Made by a program: the position numbers and the translations under genes
Notes under the pieces: generated by a model
The model's input: the letters and a program-made list of their open reading frames with translations, nothing else
The model's database searches: none
Told to the model about the DNA's origin: nothing
In this document: positions 7,433-61,987 of the stretch, piece after piece
Numbering within the stretch: the stretch's first letter is position 1
How the letters are laid out: each line of letters opens with the position of its first letter
Virus record (IMG/VR): IMGVR_UViG_3300028025_000093
Coordinates: 88,650 to 152,649 of that record
Direction: 5' to 3' (one strand)
DNA: 64,000 nt
From: a virus
Taxonomy: Duplodnaviria; Heunggongvirae; Uroviricota; Caudoviricetes

Positions 7433-8178
7433 TGTTAAACAATCAAGTGTTTTATCACGGGATTATCCGTAAGACTATTGTTAGTTTTGGTCGTATGTTT
7501 AGCAATATTTACATTGATCGTAAGCAAGGTGACTCTGTTACAGGCACAACTATTCAAAGATTACAAGTTCCACTGGCATATGCTCCAAAAGAAAAGTGGT
7601 TGGTTAGAATTGATTCTGATCCAAACTTGGATAACAATACTTACATATCGTTGCCACGCATGTCATTTGAAATAACTGGATACTCTTATGATCCAGCAAG
7701 AAAATCAAATAGACTACAAAAGATTACTTGTGGTGCTGGAACAAACTCAATGAAAGCTGTATTTGCTCCAGTTCCATACAATATAGATATTACACTTTAT
7801 ATACTAACTAAAACTCAAGAAGATGGCTTGCAAATTCTTGAACAAATTCTTCCTACCTTTACACCAGAATATACTCTTGCAATTAAAGCTGTGGATGAAA
7901 TGAATATTGTTCAAGATGTGCCTGTTATCTTAAATAGCGTATCAGTTCAAGATGATTACGATGGTGATTTTCAAACTCGTAGATTTGTAACCCACACATT
8001 AAACTTTACGCTGAAAACAAACTTATTTGGTTCTACCAATACCCAAGGTGTTATTGATCAAGTTAATGCAAACGTTGGAGAAAATGAAAACTTCTCTAAT
8101 CCAAATAGAGTTTATGTTGCGCAAGGAAATCCTGCCACAGGAATAGTGACGCAGGAAAATTGGGAAGACAACTTTTAA
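7432..8178 (+). CDS. tail sheath stabiliser / tail completion protein (gp15-like)
   Basis: Immediately upstream of the terminase large subunit. The N-terminal 'FGRMFSNIYIDRK…VPLAYAPKEKWLVRI' matches my recollection of T4 gp15 ('LFSNIQIKR…VPITYASKEHFMMKL'). Start overlaps the upstream stop (TAATG). Confidence 0.5.
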   Translation: MLNNQVFYHGIIRKTIVSFGRMFSNIYIDRKQGDSVTGTTIQRLQVPLAYAPKEKWLVRIDSDPNLDNNTYISLPRMSFEITGYSYDPARKSNRLQKITCGAGTNSMKAVFAPVPYNIDITLYILTKTQEDGLQILEQILPTFTPEYTLAIKAVDEMNIVQDVPVILNSVSVQDDYDGDFQTRRFVTHTLNFTLKTNLFGSTNTQGVIDQVNANVGENENFSNPNRVYVAQGNPATGIVTQENWEDNF

Positions 8179-8181
8179 AAT

Positions 8182-9762
8182 ATGGCTCAAGTTTATAATG
8201 CTAATGCGAATCTAAAGGCTGCTGGGGTTTCAGTTCAGTTTACTCCTGAACAAGTTCAAGAGATTATTAAATGTACTGCAGACCCAATATACTTTATAGA
8301 AACGTATTGTCAAATCGTTTCGCTTGATCGTGGTTTAATTCCATTTAAGCTGTACGATTGTCAAAAAGAAAAAGTTAATATAATCCATAACAATCGCCGT
8401 GTGATTCTTATGGAAGGTCGTCAGCAAGGTAAGACAACTACCTCTGCTGCTTATATTCTTTGGTATACTATATTCCAAGAAAATAAAACTGTAGCTATTC
8501 TTGCTAACAAAGCTACTGCTGCTCGAGAAGTATTATCTCGTTATCAGTTAATGTTTGAGCACTTACCTGTGTGGTTGCAACAAGGTGTTACTACTTGGAA
8601 TAAAGGTGACATTGAACTAGAAAATGGCTCAAAAGTTTTTACAGCTGCAACATCAACGTCAGGTATTCGTGGTAAGTCTGTTAACATGCTTTACGTTGAC
8701 GAAACTGCTATTATTCCAAACACTGTTGCTGAAGAATTCTTTACGTCAGTGTACCCAACTATTTCAGCTGGTGAAACTACAAAGATTTTGTTGTCCTCTA
8801 CGCCACTAGGTTACAATCACTTTTGGAAGTATTGGAATGATGCTGAAAATGGTCGTAATGGTTTCGTTCCACTATTCATTCCTTACTGGAAAATTCCAGG
8901 TCGTGATGAGAAATGGGCAGCTGAACAAAAGGCAATGCTTGGTGAACTAAAATACAACCAAGAAGTATTATGTAAGTTTTTAGGTTCCAGCTTAACATTA
9001 GTTGCAGCAGATACTATTGCAAAAATGTCAATTGCTCAAACAGTGTTTAGTAAAGATGGGTTAGATATATATGAACACGTTAAAGAAGGTAATGTATACG
9101 TATTAGTGGCCGACACAGCTAAAGGTGTTGGTGGTGACTATTCGGCATTTTCTGTCATTGATATATCCGAAGTACCATATAAACTTGTGGCTAAGTATAG
9201 AAAGAATGATATTAGTCCACTTTTATATCCAAACATTATACATCACGTAGCAACACAATTTAATGAAGCATTTGTACTAATTGAGATTAATTCAAGTGAG
9301 CAAGTGCCTTATATTATACATAATGAACTAGAGTATGAGAACTTGATGTTTGTTAGTAGATCTGGTGGTATGCAAACTATTACTGGCGGATTTGGTGGCG
9401 GTACTACTCAGCTGGGAGTAAATACCGACAAACGAGTAAAACGAACTGGATGTCATAACTTTAAATCATTAGTTGAAGAAAATAAGTTAATCATCCAAGA
9501 CGCTGATACGATTTCTGAAATTTCCACGTTTATTGAAACACGTGGTTCTTATGCAGCTGACGATGGTTATCACGATGACTTAGTTATGACTTTAGTACTG
9601 TTTAGCTGGTTAACAGCAACACCGTATTTTAAAGACCTAAATAATGTAAACCTGAGACAAGTTATGTATGAGAAAAGAATCAAGGCATTGGAGGATGAAT
9701 TAACTCCATTTGGCTTCTTAGATAATGGCGACACAAGAGAAAAACCACTTTTGAACTTCTGA
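8182..9762 (+). CDS. terminase large subunit (gp17-like)
   Basis: Walker A-like 'GRQQGKTT', an ATPase plus nuclease domain organisation, and the expected position before the tail sheath and portal genes. Confidence 0.9.
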   Translation: MAQVYNANANLKAAGVSVQFTPEQVQEIIKCTADPIYFIETYCQIVSLDRGLIPFKLYDCQKEKVNIIHNNRRVILMEGRQQGKTTTSAAYILWYTIFQENKTVAILANKATAAREVLSRYQLMFEHLPVWLQQGVTTWNKGDIELENGSKVFTAATSTSGIRGKSVNMLYVDETAIIPNTVAEEFFTSVYPTISAGETTKILLSSTPLGYNHFWKYWNDAENGRNGFVPLFIPYWKIPGRDEKWAAEQKAMLGELKYNQEVLCKFLGSSLTLVAADTIAKMSIAQTVFSKDGLDIYEHVKEGNVYVLVADTAKGVGGDYSAFSVIDISEVPYKLVAKYRKNDISPLLYPNIIHHVATQFNEAFVLIEINSSEQVPYIIHNELEYENLMFVSRSGGMQTITGGFGGGTTQLGVNTDKRVKRTGCHNFKSLVEENKLIIQDADTISEISTFIETRGSYAADDGYHDDLVMTLVLFSWLTATPYFKDLNNVNLRQVMYEKRIKALEDELTPFGFLDNGDTREKPLLNF

Positions 9763-9843: not shown

Positions 9844-12033
9844 ATGCCTTTTCAACTTAGTCCTGGCGTTGCAGTTGTAGAAAAAGACTTCACATCAATC
9901 GTTCCAGCAGTATCTACTGCAGCTGGAGGTTTTGCTGGTGCGTTCCAATGGGGTCCATGTCTACAACCAGTGACAATTAACTCAGAAAACGATTTAGTAC
10001 GACGTTTCGGTAAGCCATCCGATGTATTATTTCAATCATTTTTTACAGCTGCCAACTTTTTAAGTTATACAAATAACTTACTAGTAGTTCGTGCTGATAC
10101 ATTATCTCACAGAAATGCTGTTGCTAGCGTATCTGGTACTCTACAAAGCGTAACAATGACCAACGTTGGTTCTGGTTATACCAGTGTCCCAACTGTTGCA
10201 TTTAGCGCACCTCAAATTCCTGGTGGCGTAACTGCTACTGGTACTGCTGTTTTATCTGGTGGTGGCGTAACTGCTGCTACTATTGCTAACCAAGGTAGTG
10301 GTTATATTAGTGCCTTAGTTACTTTTAGTGCACCACAAAATTCAAGTGGCGTACTTGCTACTGGTACTGCTACTATTGTTGGTGGTGCAATTACAGGTAT
10401 CTCAATCACTAATGCTGGTTCTGGTTATACTATCGCTCCTACTGTAACAATTACATCAGCAAGTGGTGTTGGTGCTACAGTTGGTGTTGTTACTATTCAA
10501 GCATCTACTGTTGTTGGTATTACTACTAATAATGGTGGTACTGGTTATACTACTGCTCCTACTGTAACAATTACTGGTGGTGGTGGAACTGCAGCAGCTG
10601 CAACAGCTTCTATTCAAGTTGGTGGCGTTAAGATTCTAAACGAAAACGATTACTTAGCTAACTGGGCTGCTGGCTCTGGTGTTAATGGTGAGTGGGCTGC
10701 AAAATACCCAGGAACTCTAGGTAACTCTATTAAAGTTTCTATGTGCGGTAATACTGCTGCATTTACAACTTGGGAATATAAAGCAGAATTTGATTCTGCA
10801 CCTGGAACTTCTGATTACGCTGCTAGCGTATCTGGTTCTAATGACGAATTACACGTTATCGTTATTGATAATGATGGTCGTTGGACAGGTCAGCCTGGAG
10901 CAGTTCTAGAAAAGTTTGCTTATGTTTCTAAAGCATCTGATGCTAAAAAATCTGATGGTACAAACAACTACTATAAAGATGTAATCAATGGTCGTTCAGA
11001 GTATATCTGGTGGACTGATTTCCCATTAAATACTGGTAACACAGCTCCAGTAACTGATTGGGGTATCATTGCTACTAATAATGCGTTTGATGATTGCGGT
11101 AATAAGACTTATATTTTAGCTGGTGGTGTTGATACAACTGTTCCTACAGATGGTCAGTTGATGACAGCATGGGATATCTATCGTGACGACAGTCGTTATG
11201 ATGTATCTCTAATGCCAATTGGTAAAGCAAGCACTACTGTTGCTAACTTTGTTATTGCAATAGCAGAAGAGCGCAAAGATTGTATGGTCTTTATTTCCCC
11301 ACAAGACGTTTCTAGTGGTGAGATTATCCAGAACAGTCAGTATCAAACTGGCGCAATTGAAAAGATTATTGCTTACCGTAATGCTCTACCATCAACTTCT
11401 TATGCTGCGCTAGACTCTGGTTACAAATATCAGTATGATCGCTATAACGACAAATATCGTTTTATTGCTCTAAATGGTGACGTTGCTGGTCTATGTGCTC
11501 GCACTGATTACACTAATGATCCTTGGTTCTCTCCAGGTGGTCTAAATCGTGGTCAAATCAAGAACGTAGTTAAGTTAGCAGTTCATCTACACAAGACTGA
11601 TCGTGATAACCTTTACAAAGCTGGTATTAACCCTGTTGTTAATTTCCCAGGAGAAGGTACTGTTCTATTCGGTGACAAGACTTTATTATCTAAGCCAAGT
11701 GCTTTTGATCGTATTAACGTACGTCGTCTATTCATCGTTATGGAAAAAGCAATTGCTACTGCTGCTAAATTCCAGTTGTTTGAATTCAACGATGGATTTA
11801 CTCGTGCTCAGTTCCGTAACTTAGTAGAGCCATTCCTACGTGATGTTCAAGGTCGTCGTGGTATTACTGATTTCGTAGTTAAGTGCGATGATTCTAACAA
11901 CACTGGTGAAGTTATTGATCGTAACGAATTTGTTGCTGACATCTTTATCAAGCCAAATCGTTCTATCAACTTTATCACTCTTAACTTTGTTGCTGCTCGC
12001 TCTGGAATTAACTTTTCAGAGATCGGTGCGTAA
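9844..12033 (+). CDS. tail sheath protein (gp18-like) with inserted repeat domain
   Basis: 729 aa with a strong AAGGAGA RBS. Sheath-like N- and C-terminal regions flank an insertion (about 10160-10610) of five 'GSGYTxxPTVTIT'-type repeats. Confidence 0.85.
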   Translation: MPFQLSPGVAVVEKDFTSIVPAVSTAAGGFAGAFQWGPCLQPVTINSENDLVRRFGKPSDVLFQSFFTAANFLSYTNNLLVVRADTLSHRNAVASVSGTLQSVTMTNVGSGYTSVPTVAFSAPQIPGGVTATGTAVLSGGGVTAATIANQGSGYISALVTFSAPQNSSGVLATGTATIVGGAITGISITNAGSGYTIAPTVTITSASGVGATVGVVTIQASTVVGITTNNGGTGYTTAPTVTITGGGGTAAAATASIQVGGVKILNENDYLANWAAGSGVNGEWAAKYPGTLGNSIKVSMCGNTAAFTTWEYKAEFDSAPGTSDYAASVSGSNDELHVIVIDNDGRWTGQPGAVLEKFAYVSKASDAKKSDGTNNYYKDVINGRSEYIWWTDFPLNTGNTAPVTDWGIIATNNAFDDCGNKTYILAGGVDTTVPTDGQLMTAWDIYRDDSRYDVSLMPIGKASTTVANFVIAIAEERKDCMVFISPQDVSSGEIIQNSQYQTGAIEKIIAYRNALPSTSYAALDSGYKYQYDRYNDKYRFIALNGDVAGLCARTDYTNDPWFSPGGLNRGQIKNVVKLAVHLHKTDRDNLYKAGINPVVNFPGEGTVLFGDKTLLSKPSAFDRINVRRLFIVMEKAIATAAKFQLFEFNDGFTRAQFRNLVEPFLRDVQGRRGITDFVVKCDDSNNTGEVIDRNEFVADIFIKPNRSINFITLNFVAARSGINFSEIGA

Positions 12034-24552: not shown

Positions 24553-26261
24553 TTGTATTTAAAAGTGTAGAGTGGTCTAACTTTTTATCGACTGGTAATT
24601 CTCCAAATAAAGTTTTACTTGATAAAGCACCAACAACTCTTATCATTGGTAAGAATGGTGAAGGTAAAAGCACAATCTTGGATGCATTGTGCTTTTCATT
24701 GTTTGGTAAACCATTCCGTAACATCAATAAGAATCAGTTGATCAATAGCATCAATGGTAAAAAGTGTTTGGTTACTGTTGAGTTTTCTATTAGTGGTCAT
24801 GACTACAAAGTAGTGCGTGGAATCAAACCAAACTTGTTTGAGATCTATCAAGATGACGAATTACTTAATCAAGATGCGGCATCTCGTGACTACCAAAAGA
24901 TTCTTGAGCAACAAATCTTAAAATTAAATTACAAGACATTTACTCAAGTAGTTATTCTTGGTTCAGCATCGTTTGTTCCATTTATGCAGTTACCATCAAA
25001 CCAACGAAGAGAAGTTATTGAAGATATTCTTGATATCCGTATTTTCTCAACAATGAACCAACTGTTGAAAGCCAAGGCACTGGAGACTAAAGATGCAATT
25101 ACAAGAATCGAAAATGAGATATCAAATGCAAAGACAAAGGTTGAATCTCAAACGCAACTTATTAAAACCATTAACGAAGCCAAAACGCAAAGCATTAACG
25201 CAATCCAATCAAAAATTACTGCTAACCTGTCTGAGATTTCTAAGACAGAGGGCGAGATCAGTGGCATCGTGGCGGAGATCGAAAGTCTTAAAGTCAGCAT
25301 CGCAAATAAGGAAAAGGTATCTGAAGACATCGACAAAGCCAAAACTATCAAGTCCAAGTTACTCCAGAAAATCGAAACTTGTGAGCACAACACAGAGTTT
25401 TTTAGCGAACACGATGTATGTCCAAGCTGTAACCAAGATATCGCAGAGGAATACAAAGAGAGTATTGTCAAAGATCTTAATGAGAAAATGTTGGATAACA
25501 ACAACAAGATTAATGAACTCGAAACCATACTCACTAATCTCAATGCGAATCTATCGAAAATTAACGAAGTGGTTGGGCAAATTACCGATAAGAACATTGA
25601 GTTATCTACAAGGAACTCTACTATCACCTTACTCAATAAACAAGTCAAAGAACTTGAAGCTGAGACCAAAAGGGTTGAATCTGACACAACTAACATCGAT
25701 GAAGAGAAGAGCAAGTTAAAGGAACTTGCCACTGATGCTATCTGTAAACTCAATACGAAAACTTCTCTGCAAGAGCATCGTAATCTAGAAGAAGTTGCAT
25801 CAATCTTGTTAAAAGATACTGGTATTAAAACAGCCATTATCCGTGAGTACTTGCCCATTATGAACAAGTTGATCAACAAGTACCTTGCTGCAATGGATGC
25901 TTATATCCACTTTGAATTGGATGAAGCATTCAATGAGATTGTTAAATCTCGTTATCGTGATGAGTTTACTTATGCAAGTTTTAGTGAAGGTGAAAAGATG
26001 CGCATTGACTTGGCTATTCTTTTTACTTGGCGTCAAATTGCAAAGATGAAAAACTCTGTGAACACAAACTTGCTTATCTTGGATGAGATCTTTGACTCAT
26101 CTCTTGATACAGCTGGCACGGATTACTTCTTAAATTTGATGAATCAACTTGGTGACAAGAGCAACATTTTTGTGATTTCACACAAAGGTGATCAGCTGTT
26201 TGATAAGTTTAGATCCGTGATTCGGTTTGAAAAACGTAGTGATTTCTCTGTTATCGTATAA
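24549..26261 (+). CDS. recombination endonuclease subunit gp46 (Rad50/SbcC-like)
   Basis: Walker A 'GKNGEGKST', a long coiled-coil, a 'CPSC' zinc hook, and 'LLILDEIFDSSLD' Walker B / D-loop. Confidence 0.85.
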   Translation: MIVFKSVEWSNFLSTGNSPNKVLLDKAPTTLIIGKNGEGKSTILDALCFSLFGKPFRNINKNQLINSINGKKCLVTVEFSISGHDYKVVRGIKPNLFEIYQDDELLNQDAASRDYQKILEQQILKLNYKTFTQVVILGSASFVPFMQLPSNQRREVIEDILDIRIFSTMNQLLKAKALETKDAITRIENEISNAKTKVESQTQLIKTINEAKTQSINAIQSKITANLSEISKTEGEISGIVAEIESLKVSIANKEKVSEDIDKAKTIKSKLLQKIETCEHNTEFFSEHDVCPSCNQDIAEEYKESIVKDLNEKMLDNNNKINELETILTNLNANLSKINEVVGQITDKNIELSTRNSTITLLNKQVKELEAETKRVESDTTNIDEEKSKLKELATDAICKLNTKTSLQEHRNLEEVASILLKDTGIKTAIIREYLPIMNKLINKYLAAMDAYIHFELDEAFNEIVKSRYRDEFTYASFSEGEKMRIDLAILFTWRQIAKMKNSVNTNLLILDEIFDSSLDTAGTDYFLNLMNQLGDKSNIFVISHKGDQLFDKFRSVIRFEKRSDFSVIV

Positions 26262-26288
26262 CCCTCAGTTCTTGAGGGTTATTTTTCC
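26260..26288 (+). terminator. terminator hairpin (AACCCTCA…TGAGGGTT + T-run)
   Basis: Follows the gp46 stop. The same 'TAACCCTCA…TTGAGGG' hairpin recurs at 56622. Confidence 0.6.
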
Positions 26289-26317
26289 CCTTTAAAATCA
26301 ACAACTTACGCAGTCGC

Positions 26318-26346
26318 TTTACTTTAATTCAGATCTAAGGCATAAT
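26318..26346 (+). promoter_or_regulatory. sigma70-like early promoter (TTTACT-N17-CATAAT); first copy of a promoter/5'UTR cassette
   Basis: 'TCGCTTTACTTTAATTCAGATCTAAGGCATAATTCTACTATTGAATGGAGATTA' is near-identical to 28784-28838. Confidence 0.55.
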
Positions 26347-26371
26347 TCTACTATTGAATGGAGATTATACT

Positions 26372-26536
26372 ATGGAAATGTGGAAAGACTTTAGCGACTT
26401 TGAAATTGCATCTCTTGCTGGAAGTTATGGCTTGGAAGACTTAATTGTTTTCAATAGCGATCTAACTCTTGCAAACCGCACACAGCTTGAAACTTTGATT
26501 GCGGAATTTGAAATTGACATGGCATTTGGAGAATAA
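26372..26536 (+). CDS. small hypothetical protein (about 55 aa)
   Basis: First ATG after the conserved GGAGA RBS of the cassette. Confidence 0.35.
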   Translation: MEMWKDFSDFEIASLAGSYGLEDLIVFNSDLTLANRTQLETLIAEFEIDMAFGE

Positions 26537-28727
26537 TATGAACTCTAAAATAAATGCAGTTGACTTAACAGCAAAACTTCTTGCCACAGAAAACCTAAGC
26601 GTACGTCGTGCTCGATCACGTACTGCATCTTTTGATATTAAATCTCGGGTGCTAACTCTTCCAATGTGGAAAGACATGACACCAGAAGTTGAGGGTATGT
26701 TGGTTGGTCACGAAGTTGGTCATGCTCTATGGACTGGCGATGAGTACATGAAACCGATCCAAGAAAACCCAAAGATGCATTCTTACTTGAATGTGTTGGA
26801 AGACGTACGTATTGAGAAATTGCTCAAACGTAAATATCCAGGTATTCGTAAGACCATGAATGAGGGTTACAAACAACTCAACGAAAAGGACTTCTTTGGT
26901 GTTGGTAAAACTGATCTGACTTTAATCAATCTTATTGACAGAATTAACCTTTATTACAAAGCAGGTTTTACTTGTGGTGTTCAGTTTACACCTGAAGAAA
27001 AGTCATTCGTAGTTCGTGCTGAAAAGACAGAAACTATTGATGAGGTAGTTACCCTTGCCAAAGAAATTTATGAATACTCTCTGGAGCAAGCAAAAAAGAA
27101 TGCTGGTCAACGTATGCTCGAAGAACAACAAGAGCGAGAAGAAGACGATGAGGAATCGGGTGAGTATGATGACCTAGATGAAATTGATGAAGACTTCGAT
27201 AACATCGATGATTCAGATATGGACAAGACAGGTGAAACTCAAGACGAAGATGCTTTTGAGGGTGAAGAAAAGAAACAATCTTCTTTGGGCAAAACCAAAA
27301 CTGAAGAAGAAAAGAAACAAGAAATTGTTGACAAAGAAATGGAATCCGTGACGGATAAAACTCTGGAAGAGAAACTTGCTGAATTGGCAGATGAATCAAC
27401 TGAGTTCCACTACCATCAGCTGGACAGCGATTATGTCGTTGACCACGTTATTGGTTACAAAAAGATTTTGTCTGATGTTGCCGAGTCGTTTGTAAATATG
27501 GAACACAATGTTAAATCTATTGATGACTTTAAACCAGAATCTTCACGTATCGTGAATTATCTCATCAAAGAATTTGAGATGAAAAAGTCTGCAACAATGT
27601 ATAAACGTGCTCAGACTTCAAAGATGGGTTCTTTGGATATGAAGAAAGTTTGGTCTTACAAGTTGAATAGCGATTTGTTCAAACGTGTAACTACTTTCCC
27701 GCAAGGTAAAAATCACGGTATGATTTTCTTGCTTGACTGGTCAGGTTCGATGGATATGATGTTGGATGACACTATCAAACAAGTTGTTACCTTGGCAATG
27801 TTCTGTCAACGTGCTCAGATCCCGTATCAGGTATTTGCCTTTAGTAGTCAATACGACATCTTTACTCAGCACACTGATGCATATAGTAAAATGCGTGCCA
27901 AGCAGACTGCTATCTACGCAACTGAAGATACTAAGATTCTGAATAATGCTGTGAACAACTTTGCTTTACTTGAGTTGTTTAGCAACAAGATGAGTAATGT
28001 TGAGTTCAACACAATGTGTAAGTATGTGATGGATCGTTACTTCCGCTACGCCAGAAATGGTGAATACAATACTGGTGGTACTCCACTAAATGAAGCATTG
28101 GCATATATGGTTGATTATATTCCAAAATTCATCAAAGCCCACAACGTTGAGAAAATGTCATTCATTACTCTGACGGATGGTGAGGGTGCAGCTTTGTATC
28201 CTGTGTATCGTCAATCTCTCGATTCAGTACGCAATGAACGTGTCCTTGACGAAAAGACTGGTGAGTACAGATACAATCGTATTCAGATGAAACACTTCTT
28301 ACAAGATCCTATGACTAAAAAGTCTTATGAATTGCCTAAGCATGGTAGTGGTCAAAGCGAAGTATTGTTGCGTATGATTAAAGATCGTTACAATGTTAAT
28401 AGCGTTGGATTTTATATCGTGCCAAATACACGTCGTTACTTGTGTCAAGCAGTTCGTGCAAACTTGCCTGGATTTGCTGGTTCTGAATATAACCTTGTTG
28501 ACGTATGGCGTAAAGAGTTCCGTGACAATGGATTTGCATCTGTTAAAAACACTGGACGTGATGACTTGTTTATTATCCCTCAGAATAAACTTGCTGTTGA
28601 AAATGAACAACTTGAAATTCTTGCAAACCAAACGGCAAAGCAAATTTCAAATAAGTTCAGTAAAATGATGTCCTCCAAGAAGACTAGCCGAGTGCTGCTC
28701 AACAAGTTTATTGGTTACGTTGCGTAA
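26537..28727 (+). CDS. CobT-like von Willebrand factor A domain protein
   Basis: MIDAS motif 'LLDWSGSM' and an acidic central region. It is paired with a downstream CobS-like MoxR ATPase, as in marine T4-like phages. ATG at 26537 follows a GGAGAATAAT RBS. Confidence 0.7.
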
Positions 28728-28740
28728 GTCATTGATTTAT

Positions 28741-28767
28741 AAGGGGAAAATAATCCCCTTATTTTTG
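28741..28767 (+). terminator. rho-independent terminator (AAGGGGA-aaataa-TCCCCTT + TTTTT)
   Basis: Hairpin plus a T-run after the CobT-like stop. It is part of the repeated element 'CATTGATtTATAAGGGGAAAATAATCCCC', which is also found at 37891-37920. Confidence 0.7.
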
Positions 28768-28788
28768 GTAGGGAATGCAAGAAATCGC

Positions 28789-28817
28789 TTTACTTAAATT
28801 CAGATATCAGGCATAAT
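28789..28817 (+). promoter_or_regulatory. sigma70-like early promoter (TTTACT-N17-CATAAT); second copy of the cassette
   Basis: Near-identical to 26314-26366, including the GGAGATTA RBS. Confidence 0.55.
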
Positions 28818-28841
28818 TATACTATTGAATGGAGATTAATT

Positions 28842-29039
28842 ATGAATGAATTTACTACGTTTTCTGCTGGTGTTGCTGACGCTACTCTTGACTTGTTGGC
28901 TGGTCCTGTGTTCGCTGGTGGTCCTACTGAAAAACCTGAATTGGCGTCGCTTGACTTTATCGTGAATGAATTTCGTTTACGTTTAGGTTGTTCTGATGCT
29001 TATCTTGCTGGTTATTTGTCTGTGCTGTTCTCTGAATGA
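28842..29039 (+). CDS. small hypothetical protein (65 aa)
   Basis: ATG 6 nt after the cassette's GGAGA RBS. Confidence 0.35.
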   Translation: MNEFTTFSAGVADATLDLLAGPVFAGGPTEKPELASLDFIVNEFRLRLGCSDAYLAGYLSVLFSE

Positions 29040-29073
29040 TGTTGAGTTTTAATTTTATTATGAAAGTGAGTGA

Positions 29074-30210
29074 ATGATGTCAAACGAACAAACTGTTTTT
29101 GAAACCAAAATGTATGAGATGTTTCCCGATATTCAAACCAAAGGTACTGTTGAAAATTCTCAGCTACTTGCAGTAATGAAAGAATTGGGTACTAAGAAAT
29201 CACCACGTTGGTTGATGGTGGATAAAGTTGGTCGTGGTCTTTACGCAATTCCAGGTGGAAAGATTGTTGGTAATACTGCTTTGAAAGAAGAGCCTGTTAT
29301 GGAATCGTTTAATGTCGACTACTCCAATATTGAGTCTTTGATCCCCAAGAAAGATGCAAACTTTGTACCATTTGGTAACTATACTGATCTAGAGAATATT
29401 ATCAAGTCAGGTATCTTTTATCCTTCTTACATCTCAGGTCCAACTGGGAATGGTAAGTCAACGATGGTCGAGCAGATTTGTGCCAAACATAAAAAGCCAC
29501 TCATTCGTGTAAACTTAAACATGATGACTGACGAAGAGCAATTGATTGGTTCCAAGACCCTAGAGAATGGTAATGTGGAGATTGTAGAGGGTCCAGTTCT
29601 TATTGCAATGCGCAATGGTACTACTATGTTGCTTGACGAGATTGATGCTGGTTCAGCAAATACTCTGTTGTGCTTGCAACCAATTCTTGAGGGTAAGCCA
29701 TACTACTTTAAACTCAAGAATGAGATGATTGTTCCTGCCAAGGGATTCAACATCATCGCCACTGCAAATACAAAGGGTAAAGGTTCAGACGATGGTCGTT
29801 ACATTGGTACCAACGTATTGAACGAAGCATTCTTGGAGCGATTCGCTGTTACATTTGAACAGGAATATCCAGCTGCAAAAGTTGAGATCAAGATTATCAA
29901 GAATCTTATGGAATCATATGGATGTGTTGATGAAGAATTTGCCGATACATTAGTTAAATGGGCAGAGTCTATCCGTCGCACGTTTGATGATGGTGGAGTA
30001 GACGAAACTATTACAACTCGTCGTATGACACATATTGTTCGTGCCTTTGCAATCTTTAAGAATCGTAGCAAAGCAGTTGAACTTTGTTGCAATCGTTTTG
30101 ACTCTGCAACAAAACTTGCATTTATTGACTTGTACGATAAGGTATCAAACCCTGTTCCTGAAGTCGTTGCTCCAGTAATGCAAGAAACATCTAGTGAAGT
30201 GCCGTTTTAA
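29074..30210 (+). CDS. CobS-like MoxR-family AAA+ ATPase
   Basis: Walker A 'GPTGNGKST' and Walker B 'MLLDEID'. MoxR/CobS-like architecture, paired with the vWA protein upstream. Confidence 0.7.
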   Translation: MMSNEQTVFETKMYEMFPDIQTKGTVENSQLLAVMKELGTKKSPRWLMVDKVGRGLYAIPGGKIVGNTALKEEPVMESFNVDYSNIESLIPKKDANFVPFGNYTDLENIIKSGIFYPSYISGPTGNGKSTMVEQICAKHKKPLIRVNLNMMTDEEQLIGSKTLENGNVEIVEGPVLIAMRNGTTMLLDEIDAGSANTLLCLQPILEGKPYYFKLKNEMIVPAKGFNIIATANTKGKGSDDGRYIGTNVLNEAFLERFAVTFEQEYPAAKVEIKIIKNLMESYGCVDEEFADTLVKWAESIRRTFDDGGVDETITTRRMTHIVRAFAIFKNRSKAVELCCNRFDSATKLAFIDLYDKVSNPVPEVVAPVMQETSSEVPF

Positions 30211-30211
30211 C

Positions 30212-30240
30212 TTTACTTTAATTATGAATCGTAGTAAACT
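30212..30240 (+). promoter_or_regulatory. weak sigma70-like promoter (TTTACT-N17-TAAACT)
   Basis: 'AACTTTACTTTAATTAT…TAAACT' is a member of the conserved promoter family. Confidence 0.3.
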
Positions 30241-30278
30241 AATGGTTGTGAATTAAATACTTGAAAAGGAAATATATT

Positions 30279-30680
30279 ATGTTGAAATTTAATGATCTGT
30301 CTAAGTCTCAGAAGAAATGTATCATTGCTTTGATTGAAGCTAACCCTGCCCTGAAAACCACAGGAAAGATTAGTTTGAAAGAAGTTGTAGCTATTACCCA
30401 AGATCTTGCTGCCAAACGTACTGCTGGTGCACCAAAGATTGGTTACCCAAATTGGTTGTTTAAGCACAACAAGATTGAGCGTGGTATGTATGAACTTCCA
30501 CTTCCAACTGAGCAAGATCTTTCTGATTATGCGCAAGGTTCCGTAAAGCAACCTAAGGTGTCTAAATCTAAAGCTGCTGCTGCAACTCGCCTAGAGAAAA
30601 TCATTGAGTCATCCCCTGTTCATACTCAGGATGTTGAAGACTTCAATGCGATCTTACGTGAGAATGGTATCACAGTATAA
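30279..30680 (+). CDS. hypothetical protein
   Basis: ATG preceded by the repeated translation-initiation sequence TTGAAAAGGAAATATATTATG. Confidence 0.4.
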   Translation: MLKFNDLSKSQKKCIIALIEANPALKTTGKISLKEVVAITQDLAAKRTAGAPKIGYPNWLFKHNKIERGMYELPLPTEQDLSDYAQGSVKQPKVSKSKAAAATRLEKIIESSPVHTQDVEDFNAILRENGITV

Positions 30681-30698
30681 TTTAATTTTGTAGTATCG

Positions 30699-30734
30699 GG
30701 TTGGGGACTGCCATCTCCCAACTCGATTTTTTTC
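30699..30734 (+). terminator. rho-independent terminator
   Basis: GTTGGGGA…TCTCCCAAC hairpin followed by TCGATTTTTTT. Confidence 0.6.
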
Positions 30735-30763
30735 GATGGCGTTTTTTAACATGGAGATATTAT

Positions 30764-31033
30764 ATGTCTAAGCAAGCAAAGTTGTTGTCTCATCTGCAAG
30801 CTGGTAATGAGTTGACTGCAAAACAGATCAAAGGTTCTTTCGGTATTGCTCATCCTGCGTCAGCAGTTCGTAACTTGCGTGAAAAGGGTTACTGTGTTTA
30901 TTCAAACGCAGCTAAACTTGCAGACGGTACACCTACTGTAAAGTATCGTATCGGCATGCCAAGCAAGCGTATGGTTGCTATTGTAAATGCAGTTGTTGGC
31001 GCATCTGCCTTCACAGCACAGCGTACACGCTAA
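30764..31033 (+). CDS. hypothetical small protein
   Basis: First ATG downstream of the terminator. The ORF-track start at 30701 would lie inside the terminator hairpin. Confidence 0.4.
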   Translation: MSKQAKLLSHLQAGNELTAKQIKGSFGIAHPASAVRNLREKGYCVYSNAAKLADGTPTVKYRIGMPSKRMVAIVNAVVGASAFTAQRTR

Positions 31034-31600: not shown

Positions 31601-31609
31601 GGATTGATT

Positions 31610-32404
31610 ATGAAAAAAGTTTTTACCATCGGTGTTTTAGCTGCAGCAATTCTTGCTACAGGTTGTACTCGTATTGAGACTGGCGAGGTAGGTGTTCGTG
31701 TTGGTTTTGACAAGCAAGTTCAGCAAGGTGAGTTGCTTCCAGGTTCTTTCAATCAAGTGCTAATTGGTGATGTTCTTACATTCCCCATCAAAGACGTTAA
31801 TGTTAAACTTGATGATATGACTCCAGTTGCTCGAGATAACTCAACTATGAAAGACTTTGACGCAGTAGTTATCTACAACATCAATCAAGCACAAGTCGCT
31901 GAACTGTATAGCCAAAAGAGTCAAGCATTTCATGCTCGTCACAATGGCGATATCTACTTGATGTATAACTACATCGTTCAAGCTACACGAAATGCTATCT
32001 ACAAAGAAGCACGTAAGTATGAAGCGTTGGATATGGCAGACAATCGTACCTCAATGGAACAAGCAATCAAAGAACAGATTCAAAAATCTTTGGCTGACGA
32101 AAAACTGGACGGCAGTCTTGTTGTTGGACAGGTTCTTATTCGTAACATTGTACCAGCGGACTCAGTTGTTGCAAGTGCCAATGAATTGGTTCGTGCCAAG
32201 AATGAGTTGAAGCAGAAGGAAGTTGAAGTAAAGACTGCCAAGATGGAAGCTGAACGTATGCAAGCACTTTCCAATCAAGGTGCCCAAAGTATTGCTTATA
32301 TGCAAGCTCAAGCAATGATCAATATCTCTGAAGGTATTAAACAAGGTAAGGTTCAAACTATTGTTGTTCCTGCCAACTTTAATGCACTGATGATGCCAAA
32401 ATAA
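31610..32404 (+). CDS. SPFH/band-7 (prohibitin-like) domain lipoprotein
   Basis: Signal peptide with lipobox 'LATGC'. The remainder of the protein resembles HflC/QmcA-type SPFH domains. Confidence 0.55.
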   Translation: MKKVFTIGVLAAAILATGCTRIETGEVGVRVGFDKQVQQGELLPGSFNQVLIGDVLTFPIKDVNVKLDDMTPVARDNSTMKDFDAVVIYNINQAQVAELYSQKSQAFHARHNGDIYLMYNYIVQATRNAIYKEARKYEALDMADNRTSMEQAIKEQIQKSLADEKLDGSLVVGQVLIRNIVPADSVVASANELVRAKNELKQKEVEVKTAKMEAERMQALSNQGAQSIAYMQAQAMINISEGIKQGKVQTIVVPANFNALMMPK

Positions 32405-35285: not shown

Positions 35286-35659
35286 CTCCTTTTGACTTTA
35301 TCAATGCTATCAATACTAGCAAAGAAAACTTGTTTCGCGACCCACAAGCAAACAAGGATTATAATGCGTGGATTGTAAATAAAGGGTTGTCTTATTTTCC
35401 AGACACCGTATTGTACGCCAATGAGATGAATTTTCACCGTAGTATACCCAAAGAATGGCAATTCCAGTTTCTACTAAATAGTATACCCAAGAAAAAGCGA
35501 TTTAGTAAGTGGTCTAAAAAAGACACTCGTACTGAAACCTTGTCCTTGGTTATGGAGTATTTTGGGTATTCTGAAGAGAAAGCTAAACAAGCATTAAGCA
35601 TTCTCAGTAGTGACCAATTGACTATGATACAAGAAAAATTATACAAAGGTGGAAAATAA
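35282..35659 (+). CDS. clamp loader small subunit gp62-like
   Basis: 'LLNSIPKKKRFSKWSK' matches T4 gp62 'MAAVPRGKRYGKWAK'. It sits between gp44 and regA, as in T4. Confidence 0.5.
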   Translation: MTPFDFINAINTSKENLFRDPQANKDYNAWIVNKGLSYFPDTVLYANEMNFHRSIPKEWQFQFLLNSIPKKKRFSKWSKKDTRTETLSLVMEYFGYSEEKAKQALSILSSDQLTMIQEKLYKGGK

Positions 35660-36078
35660 TGACTGTGGAAATGATTTACTACGACTGGACGGCAGAGTCC
35701 ATGCTTGAGGTGACACTCCCAGAACCAGACAATTTTTTAAAGGTTCGTGAGACTCTAACTCGCATTGGTATTGCATCCCGTAAAGAAAATACATTATATC
35801 AATCTTGCCATATTTTACATAAGCAAGGTAGATATTTCATTGTCCATTTCAAAGAACTATTTGCTTTGGATGGAAAAGAATCGAATATCACATCAGGTGA
35901 TATCGAGCGTAGAAATGCCATTGCTAGTTTGTTGCAGGATTGGGAATTGTTAAAGATTCTAGATCCTAAACGTGCCGAGCAAAAAGCATCTCTATCGCAA
36001 ATTAAGGTGGTCTCTTATAAAGAAAAAGACCAGTGGGAATTAGTTCCAAAATATAACATAGGAAAGAAACTGAAATGA
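35659..36078 (+). CDS. regA: translational repressor RegA
   Basis: 'FLKVRETLTRIGIASRKENTLYQSCHILHKQGRYFIVHFKE' matches T4 RegA 'FLKVKETLTRMGIANNKDKVLYQSCHILQKKGLYYIVHFKE'. Confidence 0.85.
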   Translation: MTVEMIYYDWTAESMLEVTLPEPDNFLKVRETLTRIGIASRKENTLYQSCHILHKQGRYFIVHFKELFALDGKESNITSGDIERRNAIASLLQDWELLKILDPKRAEQKASLSQIKVVSYKEKDQWELVPKYNIGKKLK

Positions 36079-37870: not shown

Positions 37871-37901
37871 CATTGTAGGACTGCCTAAGTCATTGATCTA
37901 T

Positions 37902-37925
37902 AAGGGGAAATAATCCCCCCATTTC
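37902..37925 (+). terminator. second terminator of the tandem pair (AAGGGGAAATAATCCCCCC + ATTT); copy of the 28741 module
   Basis: Shares 'CATTGATcTATAAGGGGAAATAATCCCC' with 28731-28760. Confidence 0.55.
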
Positions 37926-37949: not shown

Positions 37950-37978
37950 TTGCCTTTAATTCATATCACTGGTATAAT
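37950..37978 (+). promoter_or_regulatory. sigma70-like early promoter (TTGCCT-N17-TATAAT)
   Basis: 'CTTGCCTTTAATTcatatcactggTATAAT' is a member of the conserved promoter family. Confidence 0.55.
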
Positions 37979-38281: not shown

Positions 38282-38518
38282 ATGAAAAACAAACAAATCG
38301 TTGCAACAATTTACAATCGCCCAGTTCAAACTAAATCTGAGGCACGTGCTGAATCTGAGAAAGCACTGAAGGCATTCTTGAAGTCTGGTGGAGTAATTCA
38401 AGAAAGTAAATCCCGTCGTAATCCAAAGAGCAAGATGTCTGGGAAAAGTTCCCGTGGGTTTATCTGTGGTACTTCTGGTTTCGCTACTGGTTTTCCTAGA
38501 CGTACGATGGGTGCTTGA
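38282..38518 (+). CDS. hypothetical small basic protein
   Basis: ATG preceded by the exact 21-mer TTGAAAAGGAAATATATTATG that is also found at 30259. Confidence 0.35.
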   Translation: MKNKQIVATIYNRPVQTKSEARAESEKALKAFLKSGGVIQESKSRRNPKSKMSGKSSRGFICGTSGFATGFPRRTMGA

Positions 38519-38553
38519 CTTTAATTCGCAAATAAAGTATAATTGTTTATATA

Positions 38554-52340: not shown

Positions 52341-52354
52341 GTCAAATTTAGCTT

Positions 52355-52382
52355 TACTTTAATTGCAAAATAAGGTATAATA
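52355..52382 (+). promoter_or_regulatory. sigma70-like promoter (TTTACT-N16-TATAAT) driving the HNH gene
   Basis: 'AGCTTTACTTTAATTgcaaaataaggTATAAT' is a member of the conserved promoter family. Confidence 0.5.
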
Positions 52383-56623: not shown

Positions 56624-56645
56624 CCCTCACTATTTGAGGGGAATA
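56622..56645 (+). terminator. terminator-like hairpin (CCCTCA-ctattt-TGAGGG), related to the 26260 module
   Basis: Shares 'TAACCCTCA…TTGAGGG' with the hairpin at 26260. The T-run is weak. Confidence 0.4.
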
Positions 56646-56655: not shown

Positions 56656-56684
56656 TTGACTTTAATTGCAAGATAGGGTATAAT
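56656..56684 (+). promoter_or_regulatory. consensus sigma70 promoter (TTGACT-N17-TATAAT)
   Basis: 'CGCTTGACTTTAATTgcaagatagggTATAAT' is the best match to the consensus within the promoter family. Confidence 0.65.
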
Positions 56685-58540: not shown

Positions 58541-61500
58541 ATGAAGAAATACAGACAATTAATAAAAGAACTTCCTACAAAGAAAGTAGTATTTGCCTTT
58601 GGTCGATTCAATCCACCAACGACAGGTCACGAATTGCTTGTAAAGACAGTCAAAAAGCTGGCTAGCACTGGTAGTGCTGACCACGCCATCTATGCTTCAA
58701 AAACTCAAGATGCTAAAAAGAATCCACTCTCAGTGGATAAAAAAGTTCAATACCTTGGCAAAATGTTCCCAAGCACAAAGTTTGTGGCTGCCAACCAAAA
58801 CGTAAGAACTTACATCGAAGCAGTTAAAGAACTCAATAAAAAATACAAAAACCTTGTTATGGTCGCAGGTAGTGATCGTGTTCAAGCGTATCAAGAATTA
58901 CTAAACAAATACAACGGCAAAGAATTTCACTTTGATACTATTGAAGTAGTATCTGCAGGTGAGCGTGATCCAGACGCAGATGATGCTTCTGGTATGTCTG
59001 GAACAAAGATGCGTAGTCTAGCTGCAAAAGGTGACTACGCTACATTCAAGAAAGGTCTTCCTTCTACTCTACGTGACATTGACGGTAAGCGTTTGATGAA
59101 TGACGTGCGTCTAGGTATGGGTATTGAAGCATTGAAAGAACAAGTTCGTTTTGACATTGATGCTCTACGTGACGAATTCTTTAAGGGTAAGATCTACACA
59201 GTTGGTCAATTTGTTGAGTCAGACAATCAACGTTACGAAATCATTGATCGTGGTAGTAACTATCTTGTACTAGTTAATAGCACAGGAGAAACTTGTAAGA
59301 AGTGGATTCAAGATGTTACATTATCTGAAGACCAATTACAAGAAGATGTTACAGGTGGAACTGCACCAGAACAAATTACATTCAAAGGTTACACAACCAA
59401 AAACTTTGCTCGCACTGCTGATGCAGCAAAAGCATTCCAAGATACAATCTCTCGTGCTTCAGAAAAAGATCCAGTGGCAGTTTTGAATGCTCTAAAGGCA
59501 ACTGATACTTATATGGGTATCAATGATCGTCACATTGCTGGCGAAGAATTAACTGATGCTGAGATTACTCAGTGGAAAGAAGCCAGAGTTAAAGCACAAG
59601 AATCATTGGCTCGTGTTGGAGAATTTATGCATCATATGGATTACTTCCATACGCATGAACACGAACTAGAAGGTCTATTAACAAATTTCAAAGATAGTGG
59701 TAAAGGCGAATTCATGGAAGCGTTATCAGATAAAACATTACGTCCAACAGACAAGATTAAAGTGGCACGTATTATTGCTACTATGTTGGGAGTTGATAAA
59801 GTTGAAGCAACTTCAAATCCAGAGTTGTTGGTTAATACTGCATTGCGTAGAATTAAAACCAAGACGCTAAATCCTGAAGCACTTAACATTGTAAATAAGA
59901 TGTTGGCTTTGGCTAATGAAATGGGTATTGATTACGATACAAACCTTATCCCACAGAAATTACAAGTTACAGAAGATGCTGTGGTTAAGTTTGATCCAAA
60001 GAAAACAAATAATATCGCTCAAGGTATTATGACGTTTGACGATTATCAAAAGTTAAAGAACATGACCAATAAAGCTGGTCATAGTCTTGGGCATACCGAT
60101 AATGACAACTTGCGTAAGATGAAAGTCAAGCACATGACTGAAGCCAGTGCATTGGAAAGATTCCGTGCCGCAGCTGCTGAGCGTGAAAAGAAACACGATG
60201 AGATTGAGCGTAAGCGTAAAGAAGCTGCTGCCCAAGGCAAAGAAAACATGTCTGGTGCCATTGATCGTTTAGAAAAGCATCTAAACAAAGAAGGTCTAGA
60301 TGAAATTGCAATGTACGATTTGCCAAACAATGATCGTATGGATAAAAAAGGTATTGCGGTAAATCCATTCCGCAAAGAAAAAACTGCTTCAGATTTGGCT
60401 AGAATTGCTAAAGCAAAGGCAGCAGAAAAGAATCAAAAGGGCATATACAAACCACAATCTGCAGGGCAAAGAAAAGCTACTGTCAACGACTTAATGAAAT
60501 TGGTTAAGCACATTGGGGAAAGTGCCCATGTAGAATTTCGCATCGACAATCGTGATAAAGTAAGTGGTGACCATAAGTCTACGTTTGCAGATCACGAAGC
60601 AAAAGTATCAGATACAACTGATAAAGCAACTTACGTAAAAGTACCATCTCATAAAGCAGATTCATTTAAATCTGCCATGAAATCTAAGCATGGGGTTCGT
60701 GTAGAGTTGGCTGAATCACGTGGACTTGCCGATAAGTATTACAGCATGGCTCAGGATCGTAAAGAAACTGCGCATGAAAACAAAGGCAATCACGAAGTAT
60801 ATCATACACATATGGCAGATCATCATGACGCCATGAGTCGTTACCATGAAGAACTTGGTCAGCATTCTCTTGCTCAAGCCCATGCTGATAAAGCAGAAAT
60901 TCACCATGAAAAGTCTATGGAGAAACCTAAAAAAGGTTTAGCTGAATCTGCTTGGGGTAAGGATAAAATGACTAACCTACGTCAAGCCCACGATCGTCAT
61001 ATGGAAAAGGCACTGGCTGCAAATAAAGCTGGTGATGATGAAGCAGTTAAAACTCACCAAAGAAAAATGCAGACGATCCAGACTCAGATGCAGAAACTTA
61101 AACAGAACGAAGAAGTAGATAATATTCAAGAAGATGAAATAGATACTACGGATTATAAGTTATCCCCAAGTGGTCGTAAAGTTCGTGCTCATCGTATCAA
61201 AGTTGGTGACAATAAAAAAGATGACGATGTGGAAGATATGAAAGAAGCTACCATGTCTGATGCAGATATGAAAGAGCGTGAGCGTATCGTTAAGGGTATG
61301 AAAAAGAATATCGCTGGTTTTAAAGCACGTTATGGTAAAGATGCTGAATCAGTAATGTACGCCACTGCCACTAAAGCAGCAATGAAAGAAGAAACAGAGC
61401 AGTTCGAAGAAGTTGATATGTCTCATATTGAAGACCATAAAGATCAGCAAGAACAAAACATAGAAGACCAGTTAATGGCTGAGTTAGATTTAACTGATGA

Positions 61501-61987
61501 ACAAATCGATCACATTGTTGATTCCGCTCAAGAAGATGACTTTATCGAACAGTATGATGATGAAGAATTGGCAATTGTTGATGAAGAAAGTGGCGAAGAA
61601 ATTGAAGAAGAACAAGTTAATGAACAAACATTAATGGAAGTTCTATCCAAAGTAGAACGTATCCGTGCTCGTTTACGTTTTGCTAAAACCAAAGGTAAGC
61701 GTGAGCGCAAAGCACAAATTGCCCTAAAGACACGTTCAACAAATGCCGTTGCAAATAAACGTGCACGTCGTCTGGCAATTAAGTTAATGAAGAATCGTTT
61801 ACTGCGTGGTCGTGATGCAAACAAAATCTCTATCGGTGAGAAAGAACGCATTGAACGCATAATCCAAAAACGTAAAGTAATCGTTGGACGTATCGCCATG
61901 AAGTTGGTACCACGCATCCGTCAGATTGAGAAGTCACGTTTATCACATACTAAATTTACAAAGGGTGCTCCAAATGTTGCGTTTTAA
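58541..61987 (+). CDS. 1148-aa protein with an N-terminal (H/T)xGH nucleotidyltransferase (NMNAT/cytidylyltransferase-like) domain fused to a very long charged, His-rich low-complexity region
   Basis: 'FGRFNPPTTGHELLV' (HxGH-type motif) and 'SGMSGTKMR' (ISST-type motif) within the first 170 aa. The remaining 950 aa are K/E/D/A/M-rich, with His-rich stretches such as 'HTHMADHHDAMSRYHEELGQH'. Confidence 0.6.
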   Translation: MKKYRQLIKELPTKKVVFAFGRFNPPTTGHELLVKTVKKLASTGSADHAIYASKTQDAKKNPLSVDKKVQYLGKMFPSTKFVAANQNVRTYIEAVKELNKKYKNLVMVAGSDRVQAYQELLNKYNGKEFHFDTIEVVSAGERDPDADDASGMSGTKMRSLAAKGDYATFKKGLPSTLRDIDGKRLMNDVRLGMGIEALKEQVRFDIDALRDEFFKGKIYTVGQFVESDNQRYEIIDRGSNYLVLVNSTGETCKKWIQDVTLSEDQLQEDVTGGTAPEQITFKGYTTKNFARTADAAKAFQDTISRASEKDPVAVLNALKATDTYMGINDRHIAGEELTDAEITQWKEARVKAQESLARVGEFMHHMDYFHTHEHELEGLLTNFKDSGKGEFMEALSDKTLRPTDKIKVARIIATMLGVDKVEATSNPELLVNTALRRIKTKTLNPEALNIVNKMLALANEMGIDYDTNLIPQKLQVTEDAVVKFDPKKTNNIAQGIMTFDDYQKLKNMTNKAGHSLGHTDNDNLRKMKVKHMTEASALERFRAAAAEREKKHDEIERKRKEAAAQGKENMSGAIDRLEKHLNKEGLDEIAMYDLPNNDRMDKKGIAVNPFRKEKTASDLARIAKAKAAEKNQKGIYKPQSAGQRKATVNDLMKLVKHIGESAHVEFRIDNRDKVSGDHKSTFADHEAKVSDTTDKATYVKVPSHKADSFKSAMKSKHGVRVELAESRGLADKYYSMAQDRKETAHENKGNHEVYHTHMADHHDAMSRYHEELGQHSLAQAHADKAEIHHEKSMEKPKKGLAESAWGKDKMTNLRQAHDRHMEKALAANKAGDDEAVKTHQRKMQTIQTQMQKLKQNEEVDNIQEDEIDTTDYKLSPSGRKVRAHRIKVGDNKKDDDVEDMKEATMSDADMKERERIVKGMKKNIAGFKARYGKDAESVMYATATKAAMKEETEQFEEVDMSHIEDHKDQQEQNIEDQLMAELDLTDEQIDHIVDSAQEDDFIEQYDDEELAIVDEESGEEIEEEQVNEQTLMEVLSKVERIRARLRFAKTKGKRERKAQIALKTRSTNAVANKRARRLAIKLMKNRLLRGRDANKISIGEKERIERIIQKRKVIVGRIAMKLVPRIRQIEKSRLSHTKFTKGAPNVAF

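Follow-up and report, generated by a model that had tools for sequence, protein, structure and literature searches.

Two genes of an uncultured T4-like phage, one for a protein with a vWA-like region and one for a CobS-like ATPase of the MoxR class, are each preceded by a small open reading frame (ORF) and, ahead of it, by nearly the same block of DNA, which raises the question of how the two came to share a promoter and a leader. They lie in a stretch of 64,000 nucleotides, positions 88,650 to 152,649 of the IMG/VR virus record IMGVR_UViG_3300028025_000093 (Caudoviricetes), which is called the window here; all coordinates refer to this part of a longer genome, of which the analysis covered these 64 kb. 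The initial annotation had read the block as a promoter, 5' untranslated region and ribosome-binding site cassette that places the two partners of a presumptive CobS/CobT-like complex on separate, identically controlled transcripts. We propose instead, with a probability of roughly 0.7, that the block belongs to a family of cassettes resembling the 'promoter-early stem-loops' (PeSLs) of coliphages and vibriophages, and that recombination copied the promoter and leader typical of the vWA site into the slot upstream of the CobS-like gene, in association with a mobile small gene.

The repeated block and its two cassettes

The two copies, referred to below as cassettes A and B, are set among the following features.

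26258-26286, + strand: hairpin of cassette A, overlapping the SbcC stop codon; stem 26258-26267 / 26273-26282, then a T-run
26314-26367, + strand: repeat copy 1 (cassette A); putative -35 TTTACT 26318-26323, 17-nt spacer, putative -10 CATAAT 26341-26346, GGAG 26360-26363
26372-26536, + strand: small ORF sORF1, 54 aa, with its stop codon 1 nt before the vWA ATG
26538-28727, + strand: vWA gene, 729 aa; HEVGH motif near the N-terminus, C-terminal vWA-like region
28739-28767, + strand: hairpin of cassette B, 3' of the vWA gene; 9-bp stem, 6-nt loop and TTTTT, like an intrinsic terminator
28785-28838, + strand: repeat copy 2 (cassette B); putative -35 TTTACT 28789-28794, 17-nt spacer, putative -10 CATAAT 28812-28817, GGAG 28831-28834
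28842-29039, + strand: small ORF sORF2, 65 aa, a small accessory gene
29040-29073, + strand: CobS-proximal leader, 34 nt, TTTTATTATG...TGATG, delimited by alignment A2
29074-30210, + strand: gene for the CobS-like / MoxR-class AAA+ ATPase

A repeat search of the whole window identified the block as an ungapped direct repeat of 54 nt (26314-26367 and 28785-28838, repeat family D7), with 50 of the 54 bases identical (93%). The block of about 55 nt that had first been noticed is thus real; its coordinates were right to within one base, and its variable positions are exactly the four then listed. Alignment of the two regions, run as a check, showed that the identity spans all 54 nt with no gap, and downstream of each copy there is indeed a small ORF, with a large gene after it (26372-26536 and 26538-28727; 28842-29039 and 29074-30210). 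The repeat stops upstream of both small-ORF start codons.

Likeness of this kind might arise by chance in AT-rich intergenic DNA, the window having 38% GC and matches to sigma-70-like promoters being common by chance, or it might come from a faulty assembly. Within the window, however, the 29-nt core of the repeat occurs only at these two sites when up to three mismatches are allowed. The core had no match in 100 dinucleotide-preserving shuffles, and the pair, with its copy-specific differences, is found in at least seven independent assemblies (ENA, JGI, NCBI and Logan). Because of these last two results, the repeat can be neither a chance product nor an assembly artefact, and we give that explanation practically no weight. 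Exact-pattern scans for the leader in IMG/VR and JGI metagenome contigs returned the same pair only, with no further copies.

Both copies have the same order of elements: TCGC, TTTACT (-35), 17 nt, CATAAT (-10), about 13 nt, GGAG, and an ATG that follows 8 nt after GGAG in cassette A (ATG 26372) and 7 nt after it in cassette B (ATG 28842). Transcription would start near 26353 and 28824, respectively. Folding predicts no structure in either leader (z = +0.4 and +1.9). Rfam covariance models gave no match at E <= 1 in 26000-29300. The hairpin of cassette A has a 10-bp stem (26258-26282, -13.5 kcal/mol, z = -5.1) that ends 35 nt before the -35 element, and that of cassette B (28739-28762, -12.6 kcal/mol, 4 GC pairs, TTTTT tail) ends 26 nt before it. 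A terminator had been annotated ahead of each copy; a hairpin is present at both sites, but the rule of the terminator scan is passed at 28739-28767 and not at 26258-26286, where only 4 T follow the full stem and the scan misses the hairpin because its T-run lies partly inside the stem.

Both promoters agree with the E. coli consensus at 9 of 12 positions. Matches of this quality are about equally common in shuffled sequence, so that the promoter call rests on family membership and comparative conservation. The family comprises about 13 + strand promoters with a 17-nt spacer, found with a simple pattern between 24 and 57 kb, many of which share GCTT(T/G)ACTTTAATT...(T/C)ATAAT. A match to the consensus at 10 or more of 12 positions is found at 15 sites of the + strand and 6 of the - strand, where 5.6 +/- 2.3 would be expected on each, a count that leaves out both repeat copies as each scores 9/12. 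A stem-loop lies upstream of four family promoters (26318, 28789, 37950 and 56656). Members beyond the two cassettes include the following.

30212-30240, + strand: weaker third member, directly after the CobS stop codon (TTTACTTTAATT, 17-nt spacer, TAAACT) and upstream of ATG 30279; repeat family D5
37950-37978, + strand: family promoter with a stem-loop upstream (37904-37918); repeat families D4 and D19
38515-38543, + strand: family promoter, GCTTGACTTTAATT...TATAAT
52353-52381, + strand: family promoter, GCTTTACTTTAATT...TATAAT
56656-56684, + strand: family promoter, TCGCTTGACTTTAATT...TATAAT, with a stem-loop upstream (56624-56640); third D7 copy, 61%

Within this family the repeat pair is 88% identical over 58 nt, and every other pair is at most 71% identical. 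The cassette can nevertheless not be considered a device peculiar to the CobT-like/CobS-like pair, since it is one of about 13 promoters on the same strand and each related phage has an equivalent family. The flank of the cassette B stem-loop also has a paralogous copy in the window, at 37882-37919 (repeat family D19). This 5' flank, TAAGT(C/T)(A/G)TTGAT(T/C)T(A/T)(T/C)A(A/G)GGG, which lies at 28721-28758 and overlaps the vWA stop codon at the B site, is repeated within and across genomes, being found also at A and B sites of related contigs (L009, L010, L014 and L021). Finally, a reading of TCGCTTTA as the MotA box of T4 middle promoters was rejected for its wrong spacing: a MotA box is TGCTT about 12 nt upstream of the -10, in place of a -35 (Comeau et al. 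2014, PMC4122927), and in the window GCTTTA ends 19 nt upstream of the -10, with a normal -35 present at 17-nt spacing.

Promoters of the two genes in related phages

The comparison drew on eighty IMG/VR loci with genes for relatives of the vWA protein, related contigs being designated by L numbers; slot A is the interval upstream of sORF1 and vWA, and slot B the one upstream of CobS. By tblastn, essentially all of the approximately 80 have the gene order SbcD, (o103), SbcC, slot A, sORF1, vWA, slot B, CobS, followed downstream by o139, a helix-turn-helix gene, a dGTP-diphosphohydrolase-like gene and, further on, gp45. The slots measure 38-999 nt and hold varied cargo ORFs; in L005, for instance, an insert of about 600 nt with its own ORF separates vWA from CobS (8208-8806) and is followed by a family promoter. 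In nearly every relative, slot A and slot B each have a promoter of their own, in a house style particular to the phage.

The spacing of these elements is well conserved. In 36 unique A-site orthologues, the -35, a 17-nt spacer, the -10, about 14 nt, GGAG, 7-9 nt and ATG are kept while the spacer sequence varies; because a 9/12 match is no rarer than in shuffles, this fixed spacing is the main argument that the promoters are real. Over 226 non-redundant sites, the promoter consensus of the clade is an A-rich stretch, TTGACATTaATT, ..., GTATAAT. Comparative evidence thus agrees with the promoter, short leader and ribosome-binding site that had been proposed for the block; both cassettes are probably active as promoters, presumably with early timing.

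The closest cultured relatives, at about 50% protein identity, are the Pelagibacter phage HTVC008M and cyanomyoviruses; GenBank phages, searched at near-identity with 26000-31000, gave no match. HTVC008M (KC465899) has the same gene order, gp46 ... peptidase/vWA, CobS ... gp45, gp44, gp62, regA, and its peptidase/vWA gene and cobS each have a promoter of the form TTGACT, 17 nt, TAGGAT, followed by TATATTATG; tblastn found no hit to sORF1 or sORF2 in it. The complete genome has about 15 sites of the family gcTTGAC(T/A), 17 nt, TATAAT/TAGGAT. The two promoters are ordinary members of this house family, two of its five TAGGAT-type sites, and the idea that their likeness is special in HTVC008M was rejected for this reason.

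How alike the A and B sites are within one genome was determined over 61 ungapped nt in 31 non-redundant genomes. The lowest identity is 33% and the median 56%, and the window provides the maximum (84%); L001 stands at only 72% because of a 1-nt indel. The A and B leaders of a genome are on average about 43% identical. Mean A-B identity is 59% within genomes vs 51% between genomes, a modest excess that fits a house style or occasional homogenisation and not a tight requirement. Among the genomes aligned, near-identity of A and B is confined to the lineage of the window, and near-identical control of the vWA and CobS partners is not a conserved feature. Of the original proposal, separate promoters for the two partners therefore stand, in about 80 contigs and in HTVC008M, while identical control as something conserved does not, given the median of 56%.

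These comparisons bear on whether selection for co-regulation has kept the cassettes identical, the vWA protein and the CobS-like ATPase acting as a complex that must be produced at a matched time and rate. MoxR-class ATPases commonly work with vWA partners, and the presence of a promoter for each gene in nearly all relatives is what this explanation would predict, as is the higher A-B identity within genomes (59%) than between them (51%). In 21 of 31 loci, no two promoters are more alike than A and B, which is a weak and inflated figure because the comparison set contains chance sites. Outside the lineage of the window and L001, however, the promoters are only 33-70% alike and the leaders about 43%, and in HTVC008M the pair are simply two of about 15 house promoters. 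Moreover, the shared ribosome-binding site serves two unrelated small ORFs, and the starts of the large genes differ, one being coupled to the ORF before it and the other having a leader of its own. We consider selected co-regulation improbable, and a duplication conserved by design for identical control of the partners is not supported. Equal promoters and leaders, and hence similar expression of the first cistrons, would probably be a by-product in this one lineage.

Origin of the second copy

The sequences that flank each copy are native to their site. At the A site, the hairpin and its flank (GGGTTATTTTCCC.TTTAAAATCAA..ACTTAC) are conserved in L002, L004, L006 and L007, and the stretch GGGTTATTTT(T)CCC.TTTAAAATCAA..ACTTAC recurs at the A sites of the same four contigs. 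At the B site, alignment with the corresponding sites of L009, L010 and L021 takes in the hairpin and GGTAGGGAATGCAAGAAA and extends as far as base 28784, and the sequence 3' of sORF2 aligns with the CobS-proximal leader of the relatives. It follows that the repeat begins exactly where the similarity of the native flanks ends. Which of the two copies is at home is indicated by the leader: the 21-nt leader of both copies has a mean score of 7.0-7.2 against the A-site leaders of relatives and of 4.3-4.8 against their B-site leaders, and its best match is the A site of L054 (TCTACTATAGAATGGAGA). This closer likeness to A-site leaders points to copying of the promoter-leader from A to B. Two haplotypes of the repeat pair are known, that of the window and that of L001, and the duplication is present in both. 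In the L001 haplotype GAAT is changed to GATT in both copies, a single site that hints at ongoing gene conversion.

The small gene behind cassette B has itself changed places. The sORF2 family comprises 13 homologous clusters, and its members are seen in three settings, with a family promoter immediately ahead of them in every case. Slot B holds sORF2 in the window, in L001, in L083-88 and in L091/92, which are more distant, and slot A holds it, upstream of sORF1, in L002-L004. In L089 it is one of several consecutive small ORFs that precede SbcD; family promoters stand on both sides of it, and a hairpin follows. The A promoter and leader of L004 are also those of L006, and what distinguishes the two contigs there is a clean indel of sORF2, with TTATG at either end. 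Duplication of a cassette is also seen elsewhere: in slot B of L078/L076, two 99% identical copies of an 85-nt promoter-leader-ATG segment, 244 nt apart, bracket a small ORF. In L078, whose vWA protein is 47% identical to that of the window, the copies lie at 8019-8103 and 8263-8347 and include the first three CobS codons. This duplication is independent of the one in the window.

Such associations are familiar from PeSLs, in which a sigma-70-like early promoter with its 17-nt spacer is closely preceded by a stem-loop and the element ends with a Shine-Dalgarno sequence and a start codon (PMC2839356, PMC4122927). PeSLs occur in many copies per genome, with slight differences between phage groups, and adjoin indels, replacements and displaced ORFs; crossovers of PeSL recombination have been mapped between the -10 and the Shine-Dalgarno sequence or ATG, and small patches of homology suffice (PMC2839356, PMC4122927). 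Recombination between PeSLs also yields mini-circles (Arbiol et al. 2010, PMC2839356). All five defining PeSL features that were checked are recognisable in the window cassettes. Each copy has an upstream stem-loop, a sigma-70-like promoter with its 17-nt spacer, and a 3' Shine-Dalgarno sequence and start codon; the family is present in multiple related copies, about 13 promoters in 64 kb, four of them with stem-loops; and the association with indels and displaced ORFs is matched by sORF2 at three positions, by the variable slots and by the duplicated cassette of L078. The -35 of the window, TTTACT, conforms to the T4/PST PeSL consensus (TTTACW, 17 nt, TAYWAT; PMC4122927), whereas its -10 is CATAAT. 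The phages differ as well, that of the window being an uncultured freshwater T4-like phage near Kyanoviridae and pelagimyophages and not a coliphage of the Tevenvirinae or a vibriophage. Mycobacteriophages of Cluster K provide a more remote parallel. Their start-associated sequences, 13-nt motifs upstream of the start codons of many genes, are likewise short repeats just upstream of starts, but they have no adjoining promoter, whereas the window repeat is a whole promoter-leader unit that occurs twice.

In the proposed sequence of events, each cassette would consist of a stem-loop or terminator, a host sigma-70-type promoter, a leader of about 19 nt that is unstructured (about 7 nt of it before GGAG), and the ATG that opens a small ORF. 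Transcription by host RNA polymerase would begin about 7 nt past the -10. A first transcript would then carry sORF1 and vWA and end at the hairpin 28739-28767, and a second would carry sORF2 and the CobS-like gene, probably with further genes. Homologous recombination between cassettes would have placed an A-type promoter-leader-ribosome-binding site block before CobS, together with sORF2 or next to it. The copied block would have replaced the native B promoter, leaving the native terminator and the native CobS-proximal leader in place.

Several points weigh against this account. Promoter matches of 9/12 quality number 75 in the observed sequence vs 62 +/- 7 in shuffled sequence. The hairpins of the two cassettes are unrelated to each other, which is also a difference from published PeSLs and implies that copying took only part of a PeSL. 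The direction from A to B rests on the 21-nt leader, because the promoter half does not separate A-type from B-type sites and some relatives have CATAAT at the B site. The evidence for gene conversion is one shared change, which could be a coincidence, and as the comparison covered 64 kb, the repeat may have more copies elsewhere in the genome. Finally, most published PeSLs border ORFans in hyperplastic regions, but the window copies flank conserved core genes; other members of the window family do lie among small ORFs (37.9-38.5 kb).

Conservation of the leader also suggests a different role for it, that of a cis-acting operator. The leader (ACTATTGAATGGAGATTA) might be recognized by a translational regulator such as RegA or by an RNase, and might have been copied because it is useful at both sites. 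The A-site leader is indeed conserved in contigs with a vWA protein of only about 50% identity (L054, L010, L009, L014, L061 and L065), and the window encodes RegA (35659-36078, PF01818, E = 7.5e-49), which in T4 binds AU-rich translation-initiation regions of early mRNAs. Conversely, the leader has neither a predicted structure nor an Rfam match, the leaders of the wider promoter family show no enrichment of its motif, and a leader of about 20 nt that holds the start site and the ribosome-binding site needs no extra factor to be conserved. An operator of this kind is therefore a doubtful proposition, somewhat less probable than co-regulation, and the same low probability applies to its more specific form, in which ACTATTGAATGGAGA is bound by the RegA of 35659-36078 or by a nuclease and was brought to the second site by cassette recombination. 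If true, it would place sORF1-vWA and sORF2-CobS under one post-transcriptional switch, and a mobile promoter-operator cassette would be rewiring core genes.

Two related candidates were discarded. One was an ATTGA(A/T)T motif that would follow the -10 throughout the promoter family; k-mer enrichment over the 226 non-redundant sites picked out only GGAG and ATTATG-type words. A TTATG start context as a RegA-like signature occurs in 12 of 51 replication-region genes vs 3 of 26 structural-region genes, which is not convincing. The regA gene follows gp62 in the window, as it does in T4 and HTVC008M.

The genes behind the cassettes and the wider context

The CobS-like ATPase matches Pfam AAA_5 (E = 6e-18) and CbbQ_C, phrog_249 (E = 9e-104) and the CobS structure 9ujv in the PDB (E = 1.6e-23), and with TIGR01650, the CobS equivalog, it reaches 79.7 bits against a cut-off of 558.55. 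The 729-aa vWA protein belongs to phrog_459 ('peptidase', E = 8e-183), with hits to Pfam VWA_CoxE and VWA_2 below the cut-off; it gave no hit to a CobT family and has no relative in the PDB. Two features of its sequence stand out, an HEVGH motif of the metallopeptidase-like HExxH type, read from the sequence (window 26700-26730), and a long acidic low-complexity stretch (EEQQEREEDDEESGEYDDLDEIDEDFDNIDDSD, window 27110-27260); because of them, the protein is not plainly CobT-like. An AAA_5/CbbQ_C ATPase gene adjoining a gene with a vWA-like region is what the window has in common with MoxR/vWA and CobS/CobT systems, and it departs from the latter in that the vWA protein has HExxH and is filed under 'peptidase' in PHROGs. 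No CobN was seen in the window. Membership in a cobaltochelatase fails, the ATPase being below the CobS equivalog score and its partner without a CobT family or PDB hit. Thus, of the presumed CobS/CobT-like pair, the ATPase is CobS-like, though far below the equivalog cut-off, and 'CobT-like' holds as no more than an analogy of domain architecture, the vWA hits being below threshold.

The two small ORFs are also distinct, no similarity having been found between sORF1 and sORF2, which rules out that they are paralogues whose common origin explains the shared upstream block. sORF1 has no family in Pfam, PHROG or NCBIfam, and it is found directly upstream of vWA in most relatives, with 39-63% amino acid identity (tblastn). 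Its pattern is W.DF.DFELA...AFGE, and most relatives keep its coupling to vWA; the product might be a third partner in the vWA/CobS-like system. The large genes start translation in different ways, vWA by coupling to sORF1 and CobS from its own conserved leader, and the idea that the shared ribosome-binding site controls the large genes fails, as that site serves the two unrelated small ORFs.

The CobS-proximal leader (TTTTATTATG...TGATG) is nearly invariant and is kept in relatives whether or not a cargo ORF is present; it was seen at the B sites of L002, L007, L010, L009 and L012. In the window, an upstream ORF of five codons, MKVSE* (29060-29077), has a stop codon that overlaps the CobS start, and similar mini-ORFs are present in L002 (MKESE*), L007 (MKKVSL*) and L010 (MKVSI*). 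Elsewhere among the relatives, this leader has its upstream ATG in frame with CobS.

All genes of the window are on the + strand. They include T4-type genes for the tail sheath, the major capsid protein, a UvsW-like helicase, gp47/gp46 (SbcD/SbcC), ligase, gp45, gp44, gp62, RegA, gp43, UvsX and gp41, and one related contig is labelled as coming from a freshwater metagenome. Neither strand of the 64-kb window contains TATAAATA, the late-promoter word of T4, of which a hand estimate from base composition would predict about 6 per strand. CTAAATA, for example at 398, 3970, 12037, 18315 and 58500, stands 30-60 nt upstream of the structural genes at 457, 3998, 12064, 18341 and 58541, which suggests that it might be a variant late-promoter motif. 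Inside the tail-sheath-like gene (9844-12033), there are three copies of a 59-nt coding repeat with a GSGYT..PTV motif (10147-10574), and related Gly/Thr-rich repeats are scattered in other structural genes. Two genes are unusual accessories for a T4-like replication module, one for an SPFH/Band-7 protein just upstream of gp45 (31604-32404) and one for a protein of 1148 aa with an N-terminal cytidyltransferase-like domain (58541-61987).

The duplication reveals no new mechanism and says little about the function of the vWA/CobS-like system. Its interest lies in the cassettes themselves. Uncultured freshwater T4-like phages, which are distant from the coliphages and vibriophages known for PeSLs, also possess terminator/promoter cassettes of this type, and the cassettes appear to be recombinationally active there. 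If the account given here is right, such cassettes can replace the promoter of a core gene and do not only move ORFans in hyperplastic regions. With two haplotypes, native flanks and a small gene at three positions, the locus would offer a clean, datable case for the spread of phage regulatory modules.

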